DNA of 64,000 nt, taken from Eledone cirrhosa (lineage: Eukaryota). The DNA lies in contig OZ024748.1 of NCBI GenBank assembly GCA_964016885.1, positions 20,708,001-20,772,000 on the forward strand, read 5' to 3'. This document shows, piece by piece, positions 11,881 to 62,873 of this stretch. The notes beneath the pieces are model-generated. The model saw only the letters and a list, made by a program, of their open reading frames with translations. It had not been told where the DNA came from and did no database searches. Position 1 is the stretch's first letter, and every line of letters starts with the position of its first letter. The position numbers and the translations under genes were made by a program.

Positions 11881-12171
11881 TATATATATATATATATATT
11901 TATATATATATATATATATATATATATATATATATATATATATCATACTCTGCTCTGTAAGAGCATAGAGTGCTCAACCGGCATACCGCCTATGGAAGCA
12001 TCTTAGCTACCATCAGACAGACACACACACACACACACATATATATATATATAATAGAAAAAACGAGGAAGTATCGTTTACATGTGAAAAATATTTATTG
12101 CGTATCGACCTGTTACGCGCGTTTCGCGTATATATATATATATATTATTCAAAATATTAAATCAAAATATA

Positions 12172-12235
12172 TGTTTTATTATATATATTTCGAAGGTAGT
12201 GCTGTTTTTTCAGTACGTCCTCGTCAGATAAAATA
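12172..12235 (-). ncRNA. Type I hammerhead ribozyme with palindromic stem III
   Basis: Minus strand: TATTTTAT-CTGACGA-GGACGTACTGAAAAAACAGCACTACCTTC-GAAA-TATATAT-A-ATAAAACA; full core, stems I and II pair. Confidence 0.85.
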
Positions 12236-12928
12236 CATGAATTGATATATGACATACCTCAACGGTCTTGATGGTTCAATTCCAGTATTGGCAGTGATTT
12301 ATTACAACAAATCTCAATATTTATATACCACAAATAATAACATGATAAACTTAAGTTTAATGAAGAAGAGGATATGGAGCGAGAAATGGGTATGGGGAGG
12401 GGGTGAGTATGAGGAAATGCAAGAAGAAATAAATAAATAAATACATACATACATAAATATTTAAATTCGTAAATATACGTGTTAGGGAAGAAAAAGGAAG
12501 AAAGAGAGAGAGAGAGAGAGAGAGAGAGAGGGGGGGGGAGAGAAGAAGGAAGACGTAACTGGAAAAAGGAAAGAAAGAAAGAAAGAAAGAAAGAAAGAAA
12601 GAAGAAAGAGAAATGATGCGTGACCGTTGTTTTCAAATATTAAGTCAAATAGAAGCGACCAATTAAATACCATAAACTTTTTAAAATATCTTTTGTATTT
12701 GGTTATGTTTAAGCTAATTATACTAATATATTATATCAAAATTAAAACAATATAAAAATATTTTCTATGATAATCATAAGCATAGTTTAATTAATATATT
12801 TACTAAATATTTTGTTACAAAATTCACAAACATTTTTATCTATAAAGCAAGTTGAAATACATATTAAATATGTATAAGGATATTTACTACAACCTATGCA
12901 TATATCACCATCAGTATATGTATTTTAT

Positions 12929-13079
12929 ATAATTGTTTCTACTTTAGGCACAAGGCCAGCAATTACCCAGTGCATTACTGGTACTTTATTTTATCGACCC
13001 CGTAAGGATGAAAGGCAAAGTCAACCTCGGCGGGATTTGAACTCAGATCGTAAAGGGACATAACTATGCTGGAAAGCAA
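12929..13079 (-). mobile_element. SINE family A, 5'-truncated
   Basis: Reverse complement of B-box, central block and 3' end. Confidence 0.85.
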
Positions 13080-13237
13080 TGTTAAGAAATATTATCTGAA
13101 TTATTCTATTTTCATTATAAAGTTTTTTAAATTCATTGGTTGTCATTTCATTACAGGATTAATAAGTAGTTATATTTACTCTTAAAAGTATTATTATTTC
13201 GATTTTATTTCTGTGATTACATCTTATATATAGTAAA

Positions 13238-13420
13238 GGTGGATTGGCAGTATCGGTGGAGGGTCGGACGCCATGCTTTGCAGCACAGTTACGTCCCTTT
13301 ACGGACTGAGTTCAAATCCCGCCGAGGTTAACTTTGCCTTTCATCCTGACGGGGTCGATAAAATAAAGTACCAGTAATACACTGGGTAATTGCTGGCCTT
13401 GTGCCTAAAGTAGAAACAAT
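13238..13420 (+). mobile_element. SINE family A, short-tail variant
   Basis: Same structure as other copies. Confidence 0.9.
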
Positions 13421-13527
13421 TATATATAGTTTCCCTTTAAGGATTTTTCGTATATTATTAAACTGTATAAATGATGTTAAATATAACAACATCACGACCG
13501 TTGAGGCATGTCATACATCAATACATG

Positions 13528-13683
13528 TGTTTTATCTGACGAGGACGTACTGAAAAAACAGCACAGTACCTTCGAAATATATATATAATTGTTTCAACTT
13601 TTGGCACAATTTTTCTACTTTTCTACTTTTGGCCAGCAATTACCCACTGCATTACTGGTATTTTATATATATATAATAAAACA
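13528..13683 (+). ncRNA. Type I hammerhead ribozyme with a SINE fragment inside stem III
   Basis: TGTTTTAT-CTGACGA(13536-13542)-stem II-GAAA(13574-13577)-TATATATATAA-[SINE fragment]-TTATATATATAT-A-ATAAAACA. Confidence 0.8.
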
Positions 13684-60193: not shown

Positions 60194-60910
60194 CTAGCAT
60201 AAAAGCCCGGCGTTGCTCGGGGTCAGTAAGTTACCAAAGTTAGGTTGCACCACCCATTTTATGGCAGCACTTTTTTGTCTGCCAGGCACTGGGTGAATGA
60301 ATTGCAGACCTGGACTGCCGAAGCAGGAGCTGCGCCAGCAGTGACAATTGTAGTTTCGCCTATGGATATTATCCCTGTGCAAAGAAGTGTTGAAATTTAT
60401 TGTTTCACAGTACTTGCGCAACACGCGCGTAGACGATGCCAGCCGAACAACAGAGATGCAATGGAGTTGTTCTGCATGGTTGTCTAATGTGTGTTTTCTA
60501 AATTTAAGACAGTAGGGAGGGGTGTGATATGGGAGAGAGTTAGCTGTTGTTTCTATCAGGTTTAGTGACCTCATGGAGGATATGTGTTTTCTAAATTTAA
60601 GACAGTAGGGAGTGGTGTGATATGGGGCAGAGTTAGCTGCTGTTTCTAGCAGGTTTAGTGCCCTCATAGAGGATATGTTTTCTAAATTTAAGACAGTGAG
60701 GAGGGGTGTGATATTGGGGAGAGTTAGCTGCTGTTTCTAGCAGGTTTAGTGACCTCATAGAGGATATGTTTTCTAAATTTAAGACAGTAGGGAGTAGTGT
60801 GAAATGGGGGAGAGTTAGCTGCTGTTTCTAGCAGGTTTAGTGACCTCATAGAGGATATGTTTTCTAAATTTAAGACAGTAGGGAGGGGTGTGATATGGGG
60901 GAGAGTTAAG
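60194..60910 (-). mobile_element. Non-autonomous Helitron-like element, 3' end; far boundary uncertain
   Basis: A|CTAG terminus followed by the hairpin CCCGGCGTTGCTCGGG, the same as at 61775. Confidence 0.6.
60490..60908. repeat. Tandem array of about 91-93 bp, about 4.5 copies
   Basis: TGTTTTCTAAATTTAAGACAGT recurs five times. Confidence 0.92.
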
Positions 60911-61691
60911 TTCTCTTTGTCATTGAAGTAAATAAATGTTTGACCGTTCCACACTCAAAAATAAACGTTCTCTCTCTCTCTCCCTCTCACCTCTCTTCTC
61001 TCTCTCTCTTCGGCGTTCCTAAAGGAAGTTTGTAAGCATGTATGTAGTTTTATCGAATTTGAAGGGGAGTAGAGAGAGGTAAGCAGATTCTATTAGAGGG
61101 GTAAAGCGTCATGTATTTAGTTTTATCGATTATTTCCATAATTGTGGGTGAGTTTGAATGGAATAAATAGTCGTTGACCTAAGTTAGACCATTTACAACA
61201 TTCTCACAGACATTGAGTCGAATCAGTTTGAAATTGTGCAAATCTATAAACATGGAACATGTGCACACACACACAACAACAACAACAATCTGCCTTTTAT
61301 AGATAATGATATATACATACATACACACACACACACATATATATATATATATATATATATATATATATATATATATATATATATATATATATATATATAT
61401 ATGTATATATATTTCGTTTTCGTTTCTGAATTTGTTTAGCAAGATTCTTTATCTGAAAACGTGTGTTGAAACCGATATTGTTATACTTTGGAAGTGTCAT
61501 GTTGCCAATAAGAAACACACGCACCAGTTCTTTCACTCCAATATATTATAAATTAAATTTATAAATTTAAGAATTTATAAATTTCCGGTTGGTCGGTTGG
61601 TTCCACAACCGGACGGTTGTTCATATATTGTCAAAGTTCTTTCGTCACACATGACTGGGGATTCTTTTCTTTGTTTTTGTGCCTCTCCCCA

Positions 61692-61734
61692 GTCACTGAA
61701 GAGGTCACAGAATGTGTGACGAAAGAACGTTGAC
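61692..61734 (+). ncRNA. Degenerate hammerhead motif
   Basis: GTCA-CTGAAGA-G-GTCACA-GAATG-TGTGAC-GAAA-GAACGT-TGAC; stems I and II perfect, cleavage triplet mutated. Confidence 0.65.
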
Positions 61735-61774
61735 AATATATATATATATATATATATATATATATATACATGAA

Positions 61775-62396
61775 CTAGCAGATGTACCCGGCGTTGCTCG
61801 GGAAATGAATGACAGCCTGTTTGTCCGTATAAAGAGTGCCAAAGGTTGAGCAAAGAATTGAAATGTAATTGTAAAAAACAGTTTAACAAAATGGGTGTAC
61901 AGTGTCATGATTGAGTGAAATAAACGGCAACATAAAAACAATTCATCGGGTAGCTTGAGTTAATTGACGTGAATGATTTCAGGTCCGGCCTTGCTGTAGT
62001 AGGTATGAGTAAGGGGATAAAGATGGAATAGACGCACCGTATGTCCTTCAGTAGACTAAACCCTATGCGTAAGATGGCGCTGCCACTACCACGTTGACCA
62101 TCCACTGGACATAGAAATATCATTCCTTGAAGCAAATCGACCTAATACTTCAAAAGTTAAAAGGAGCTTAGTATTTGTACACAGACAGATACACACACGA
62201 AATCGATTTTTCGGCCCCAATATCGATTTTTTTTCAAATTTGTTTTTGTCCAAAACCTGCTCTGGCATATAAGCAACATGTGTGCCAAATTTGGTTGAAA
62301 TCGGCCTAGTACTTCAAAGGTTAAAAGGAGCCTAGTATTTGTACACAGACACACAGACAGACACACACACACACACAGACCGACTTGCTTTTATAT
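61775..62396 (-). mobile_element. Non-autonomous Helitron-like element
   Basis: CTAG plus subterminal hairpin at one end; CCAAATTTGGTTGAAATCGG, ACAG/AC microsatellite and CTTTTATATAT at the other; internal duplication near 62127-62195 / 62296-62360. Confidence 0.7.
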
Positions 62397-62411
62397 ATAT
62401 ATATATATATA

Positions 62412-62873
62412 CAATGATATTAAATAAATGGAAACTATATTTATAAAATCATATTTATTTTATTATATATAAAATAAATATGATTTTTATTTTATTATTA
62501 TATCATATTTATTTTATTATTTATATTATTATATCATAATATTTTATTATTATATCATATTTATTTTATTATTTATATTATTATATCATAATATTTTATT
62601 ATTATATCATATTTATTTTATTATTTATATTATTATATCATATTATTTTATTATTATATCATATTTATTTTATTATTTATATTATTATATCATATTATTT
62701 TATTATCATATATTTATTTTATTATTTATAAAATAAATATGATTTTATAAATATAGTTTCCATTTATTTAATATCATTGAATATTTACTCCAGTAAAACT
62801 GTTGAGTGCTATAGATTAGTTATAAACATTTATATTTGTCGGACTTCCAACAAATTAAATACCCCTTCTACTT
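62412..62873 (+). mobile_element. Fold-back element related to 47915-48160, with the ribozyme core replaced by AT-rich repeats
   Basis: 52-bp perfect arms 62412-62463 / 62728-62779; shared tail TTTACTCCA..AAACTGTTGAGTGC..CCAACAAATTAAATA. Confidence 0.75.

Follow-up and report, generated by a model that had tools for sequence, protein, structure and literature searches.

Hammerhead palindromes of the Eledone cirrhosa genome as probable inverted end insertions of Penelope-like elements

A 64,000-nt stretch of the Eledone cirrhosa genome (3.0 Gb; OZ024748.1, positions 20,708,001-20,772,000), here called the window, contains inverted repeats whose arms hold a type I hammerhead ribozyme or a remnant of one, and raises the question of what these palindromes are and how they arise. 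A first-pass annotation, made from the sequence alone, had described six of them and read them as families of non-autonomous mini-elements driven by Penelope-like elements (PLEs). The window is AT-rich (GC 36.7%) and crowded with (TA)n tracts, short interspersed nuclear elements (SINEs) and fragments of long interspersed nuclear elements. We consider it probable that each palindrome represents a short inverted insertion of the hammerhead end of an autonomous PLE, made of two run-off cDNAs joined head to head.

All six inverted repeats are present: self-BLAST of the window returned locus A (12188-12273/13490-13577, 92% identity), B (47958-48067), C (48272-48396, 99%), D (55672-55993, 97%) and E (51875-51933/52011-52068, 78%), and F, absent from that list, was seen by eye in the sequence. 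The limits first assigned to them proved too short, since a tail prolongs every locus on one of its sides. Five intact motifs in the window, in the left arm of A and in both arms of C and D, satisfied a strict descriptor of the type I hammerhead (CUGANGA, GAAA, UH and three stems), which bears out the type I anatomy; the pairing of hammerheads holds for C and D with two intact cores each, whereas the right arm of A and loci B, E and F have broken or variant cores. The arms face outward at every locus, as had been stated.

We applied the same descriptor to a grid sample of the genome (118 stretches, 1.18 Mb) and obtained 90 matches, compared with 0-2 in each of five controls derived from reversed, complemented and shuffled sequence. 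Once one overlapping duplicate had been removed, 32 neighbours no more than 1.1 kb apart remained, of which 21 were same-family pairs, 19 outward, 2 tandem and none inward (p=4e-10), and a (TA)n tract lay within 250 nt downstream of 70 of the 87 scorable motifs, against 24% of random positions. The outward-pair pattern and its (TA)n association, both anticipated in the first-pass annotation, are therefore real and genome-wide. The grid holds at least one intact motif per 13 kb and, for outward pairs with both cores intact, at least one per 62 kb (19 per 1.18 Mb); both are minimum values, since families E and F escape the descriptor. The window has 6-7 loci. Stem I variants among the motifs appear compensatory by eye (GATTC/GAATC and GCTTC/GAAGC). 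More than 10 distinct hammerhead families pass the descriptor in grid loci L086-L203 (L numbers denote genomic loci outside the window); their stem III cores are palindromic, for instance CTAG, TGCA, TATATA and CACGTG-like variants.

At other loci the arms of families B, C and D lead into frames coding for reverse transcriptase (RT) and a GIY-YIG endonuclease. This upholds the Penelope-like origin proposed at first and, together with the variation of junctions from copy to copy, speaks against non-autonomous mini-element families. In other copies the D arm has upstream of it a 3' untranslated region of ~1 kb and, before that, the GIY-YIG endonuclease and RT (parents L010/L031, L034 and L249). 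In L246 and L247 the family C arm stands before an open frame of 632 codons, and L247 shows in succession a TATA box at -30, an initiator-like CCA+1GATT, the hammerhead with its cleavage position after +45, an inner end at +66, an outer one at +134 and an ATG at +182. [quoted passage not shown] Locus A is tied to an RT and GIY-YIG element through related arms only, and no parent of family E was found in 10 loci examined. Several families share one architecture, as the first-pass annotation had supposed, and the window itself contains no PLE frame, again in agreement with it.

The C and D frames have RW(R/I) (RWR and RWI, not RWK), DKT and a CxCX5C linker and are without CCHH, and they show the marks of the Hydra clade (RWK-like, DKT for DKG, CxCX5C, no CCHH, CxxC and CxH near the end); the parents of C and D would accordingly be placed there by motifs rather than by an RT tree. 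Pfam scans of four pieces of PLE open reading frames (ORFs) recognised no RT or GIY-YIG family. A database search with the C protein gave 1403 relatives; among the 120 listed, most are of ~700 aa and one has PF01541. Judged by sequence, the arms are ends of autonomous PLEs and not a separate element type. Exact 20-22-mer counts gave 10,262 genome-wide arms for C (with the +1 base kept) and 11,147 for D. Matches to the C motif are unevenly divided between the strands (6,576 forward, 3,686 reverse), those to D evenly; in L246-L248, C copies return at distances of 8.5 and 15 kb, and the skew suggests a large tandem array or duplication that holds C.

Two features of the insertions bear on how they form, their outer ends and their junctions. 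From 60 position-ordered D loci we obtained 31 distinct two-armed insertions, and in all 31 one arm ends near +170 and the other at +256, so that a tail-less arm is combined with a tailed one; in the set of best D matches, L002 with two tails and L025 with none are exceptions. One-sided tails are also found in families B, C and F, with a length of 68 nt in C, ~85 nt in D and ~58-92 nt overall. Where one arm of a D insertion is clearly short (13 cases), it is the tailed arm in 12 (p=0.003), which means that neither arm was copied from the other and that two primings are needed. In L002 and L013 the joined arms come from different subfamilies. None of the 13 short D arms starts at the hammerhead cut site, and there is no junction hot spot there. 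Among 50 C palindromes with a fixed centre, stem II occurs in two variants (33 and 17), always common to both arms; with arms drawn independently, such agreement would have a chance of ~1e-13, hence both C arms usually derive from one source.

The tail is the one already described for PLEs (PMC8557442, PMC3846280), which for an anole element in vitro spans the interval from one internal RT start to the other, with both strands extended and the RNA uncleaved (PMC11167929). The tail, arm and variant data are all accommodated by two primings, either on a single RNA or on RNAs of common source, and the anole protein, predicted to be a dimer (PMC11167929), also fits two primings. These observations have to be weighed against fold-back, or antisense self-priming, at a small palindrome with the first arm serving as template for the second, as proposed for rotifer PLEs (PMC3846280). 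Small palindromes (CATATG and AGGAWTCCT) do occur at the junction hot spots, and the arm agreement in the 50 C palindromes would follow from fold-back as well. However, a tail-less arm as template cannot supply a tail and a short tailed arm cannot yield a longer one, while both configurations are common in D; at locus C of the window the arm holding the 'copied' centre base is the tailed one, and arms begin at one base even when they are joined to unrelated partner positions. We therefore regard fold-back as improbable.

Palindrome centres vary among the copies of families B, C and D, yet they cluster. In D the hot spot is the A of ATATGTTG, window position 55827: of the 11,147 exact D arms 4,515 run on into parent sequence, which leaves up to 6,632 that stop no more than 7 nt from this A. 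In a survey of read-derived contigs from four runs, possibly of the assembly's own sample, 11 of the best 15 of 100 joints land on the same position. Such head-to-head joints in D, even if they may come from the same sample and no contig spans locus D, together with the one-sided tails, an arm divergence of 1-22% and SINEs nested in one arm, reduce the suspicion of read fold-backs, palindromes in repeats being a known assembly hazard (PMC8557442), to a negligible level. The family C hot spot lies 30 nt downstream of the TATA box, and the box is kept in related subfamilies.

The base at -1 in the D parent is C, whereas 2,111 arms carry G and 2,151 carry A or T there (A in 19 of the first 100 of the latter class). 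We classified 30 of the G loci by hand and found 15 in which the G is explained by neither parent nor partner, the others being due to microhomology (6), ambiguous one-base centres (5), local duplications (3) or unclear (1). An extra G at the 5' end of a retrocopy is a known trace of RT copying the cap. A single-base hot spot with an untemplated G is not what would be expected if long inverted insertions had later collapsed by deletion of their centres. Long palindromes are unstable, inverted copies of 0.7-4.7 kb do exist, and locus B and a seventh locus in the window show later deletions, but as a general origin we think deletion very improbable.

The mechanism that we favour would start at the promoter of the pseudo-long terminal repeat (pLTR), from which RNA would begin just upstream of the hammerhead. 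The PLE protein would nick both strands in a (TA)n tract and prime at two internal RNA sites, whose spacing would give the tail (68 nt in C and ~85 nt in D), and RT would pass the uncleaved hammerhead to the predicted capped RNA 5' end, where it would often add a C, read as the extra G. Microhomology, ATAT in D and GGAATCC in C, would then let the two cDNA 3' ends anneal, and the gaps would be filled in. Priming at the downstream copy of the pLTR would yield the long ORF-bearing arms, and in the short products the hammerheads would be mere passengers. The anole element needs RNA out to +172, past its start sites (PMC11167929), and the short products here, being without promoter and without RNA past the outer start site, are likely dead on arrival; the stubs are thus likely dead copies and not self-propagating.

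Several points weigh against this account. The RNA 5' end is predicted rather than observed, family D is without a TATA box at -30, and family F has two 3' ends without a sharp junction hot spot in the 27 arms analysed. Half of the G loci are ambiguous, T at -1 in D is about as frequent as G, and a C may be added at any template end, so that the extra base marks run-off more surely than a cap. The agreement of arms in all 50 fixed-centre C palindromes is likewise predicted by fold-back or by a master copy. In addition, the parents of A and E are not firmly identified, and none of the ORFs seen is fully intact, since L247 has a frameshift before the endonuclease and L249 a stop and a frameshift.

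A master copy is at the heart of another explanation, in which palindromic families propagate themselves from masters, these being transcribed and then moved by PLE protein acting in trans. Sequences acting in cis in PLEs can mobilise other RNA in trans (PMC3846280), non-autonomous PLE derivatives are known (PMC8557442; bioRxiv 2026.07.22.740005), 434 loci share one exact C centre, and the 40 best C matches cover the whole palindrome at no less than 98% identity. Yet 434 are few against the 10,262 exact C arms in which the +1 base is retained; both stem II variants are represented among palindromes with the fixed C centre (17 and 33 of 50), and long promoter-bearing copies carry both as well (10 and 35 of 45). 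The D and B centres vary from copy to copy, and the short C units are without the TATA box. For the fixed C centre, recurrent formation at a near-palindrome located where the RNA starts is a simpler account than a master copy, two masters being also conceivable. A fixed structure with a lineage of its own was not seen, as judged from the variable centres and the occurrence of the C centre in two parent variants, and we hold self-propagation to be unlikely. Two apparent regularities were discarded along the way: a variant that seemed confined to one arm in D, a hint of a master palindrome, reflects query bias, since copies taken without selection have a run of T at that site, and the 40 best C matches owe their uniform centre to selection by the query (the grid copies vary).

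The first-pass annotation had further proposed that read-through RNA is locked in a hairpin whereas transcripts started in the centre could self-cleave. The former agrees with prediction, the locus D read-through RNA folding into a single long hairpin (-267.9 kcal/mol, z -34.5), and single hammerhead monomers fold weakly (z -1.65 to +0.22). With such a hairpin predicted and such weak folds of the lone hammerhead, cleavage of stub read-through transcripts would be unlikely. The latter is unlikely for short copies too, because the C units begin 30 nt past the TATA box, and because PLE hammerheads are weak as monomers (PMC4209133) or needed protein (PMC11167929). In the Rfam check suggested at the outset, no hammerhead reached its curated threshold at C (Hammerhead_3 only, 21.6 bits against 48.5 required) and none matched at D; the enrichment of outward pairs and (TA)n flanks was revealed by the descriptor. 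An Rfam scan of the whole window was swamped by (TA)n matches (best 150 of 445 inspected), and the output of an inverted-repeat finder was likewise dominated by them.

The coordinates of the arms are compiled in Table 1.

Table 1. Arms and associated features of the hammerhead palindromes, in window coordinates.
Feature	Position	Strand	Remarks
Locus A left arm, tail-less	12146..12450	-	Intact type I core 12227 to 12179; runs on into family upstream sequence
Two SINE copies in locus A centre	12926..13428	.	12926-13078 minus, 13238-13428 plus
Locus A right arm, tailed	13487..13829	+	Core from 13536; stem III split by SINE-like fragment 13591-13666
Locus B left arm, tail-less	47915..48016	-	CUGAUGA at 48014; GAAA changed to AAAA
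Locus B right arm, tailed to 48159	48017..48159	+	Begins in stem II, without CUGAUGA; internal deletion
Locus C left arm, ~68-nt tail (48203-48269)	48203..48333	-	Intact core; one stem I mismatch
Locus C centre base (48334) and tail-less right arm	48334..48399	+	Intact core from 48337; junction at parent's predicted RNA 5' end
Locus E left arm	51875..51933	-	Hammerhead-like anatomy, TTGAATAA where CUGANGA is expected
Locus E right arm, tailed	51932..52154	+	Decayed core
Locus D left arm, ~85-nt tail (55583-55668)	55583..55826	-	Intact core from 55769
Locus D right arm, tail-less	55827..55996	+	First base is the junction hot spot (55827, predicted +1); core, from 55896 on, intact
Locus F left arm, long 3' part and tail	61418..61682	-	17 nt of core deleted
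Locus F right arm	61684..61737	+	Core from 61696; U16.1 changed to G; stops early in (TA)n
Seventh locus, decayed B-family insertion	~62412..62872	.	Left end tail-less, right end tailed; both cores lost

At the seventh locus (62412-62872) the centre has expanded into an AT-rich minisatellite. Family E (51875-52154 and L341-L349) has hammerhead-like stems and a conserved TTGAATAA in place of CUGANGA, possibly a variant of the core. The B and C insertions (47915-48399) sit in one common (TA)n tract, and mixed clusters of PLE families within single (TA)n tracts recur at many loci, for example L045, L085 and L107. Solo hammerhead-like motifs on the minus strand lie at 52355, related to family F, and at 32371, from another abundant family with 25 matches among the loci examined. 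Outside the palindromes, the window has broken frames of non-LTR retrotransposons at 16042-19549 (+), 43260-45061 (-) and 405-2033 (+), the first two presumably with a restriction-like endonuclease at the end and the third resembling L1/Tx1, as well as tandem arrays at 7818-8657, 53871-55299 and 60487-60908, with units of ~168, 64 and 92 bp.

In these very short and very numerous copies the two primed ends can be seen along with the junction, and they point to two primings on a capped sense RNA. In a bolder form that we put forward tentatively, and to which we give somewhat less than even chances, the stubs are fossil 'strong-stop' products, present in tens of thousands, of a dimer that primes twice on one capped sense RNA and whose cDNAs are sealed head to head, making PLEs a large source of double-stranded RNA. 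If true, this would settle how the inverted ends and tails of PLEs form and would allow the transcription start of every family to be mapped from DNA alone; the double-stranded RNA would be near-perfect over 130-330 bp and might, as an idea, serve ADAR or Dicer. Extrapolation from the grid gives ~48,000 doubly intact outward pairs, whose RNA, where transcribed, would fold as long hairpins. The stubs also caution against annotating such copies as miniature inverted-repeat transposable elements, microRNA precursors or new ribozyme elements.

Among known systems, the closest in protein and target are the Hydra-clade PLEs (Craig et al. 2021, PMC8557442), with which the present elements have in common RW(R/I), DKT, CxCX5C, the lack of CCHH, a C-terminal GIY-YIG, a hammerhead and (TA)n; that clade inserts into (TA)n and includes Hydra-1_Obim of Octopus bimaculoides (PMC8557442), whose N-terminal and RT motifs resemble ours by eye. 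Unlike the published Hydra set, they have more than 10,000 exact arms per family and many copies of only 200-420 bp, and three of the four hammerhead words searched are absent from the part of the PMC8557442 supplement consulted, so that they look like other families. Non-LTR retrozymes (PMC7229834, bioRxiv 2026.07.22.740005) are similar in being ORF-less, PLE-derived and equipped with a type I hammerhead, but they are tandem direct repeats giving circular RNA, whereas here the repeats are inverted, with no two same-sense ribozymes per RNA; a retrozyme-type tandem arrangement is not the pattern of our sample, with 19 outward against 2 tandem same-family pairs. The paired hammerheads recall the dual hammerheads of Schistosoma, on opposite strands 100-700 bp apart (PMC4209133). 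Dimeric variants of PLE hammerheads were reportedly described by Lünse and co-workers in 2017.

The head-to-head ends with an optional tail at one end resemble the inverted 5'-truncated pLTRs of Penelope, rotifer and Naiad elements (PMC3846280, PMC8557442). The tails are longer here (~58-92 nt against 30-40 in published pLTRs), and the junction is linked to a predicted transcription start and bears an extra G, where antisense self-priming had been proposed for the inverted ends (PMC3846280) and the origin of inverted ends and tails had been called undefined (PMC8557442). Inverted truncated copies, tails, (TA)n targeting and opposite-strand hammerhead pairs are thus already published. In the limited Penelope literature searched we found neither twin priming nor a head-to-head junction tied to a capped 5' end or an untemplated G; this cap-side junction signature is relevant to the formation of PLE inversions. 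The nearest biochemical counterpart is the anole Poseidon element PAc (Frangieh et al. 2024, PMC11167929): a joined inverted product is not described in the part of that article used here, and in our elements the ORF starts downstream of the tail, but PAc shares with them two internal RT starts, the extension of both strands and a hammerhead that stays uncut near the RNA 5' end.

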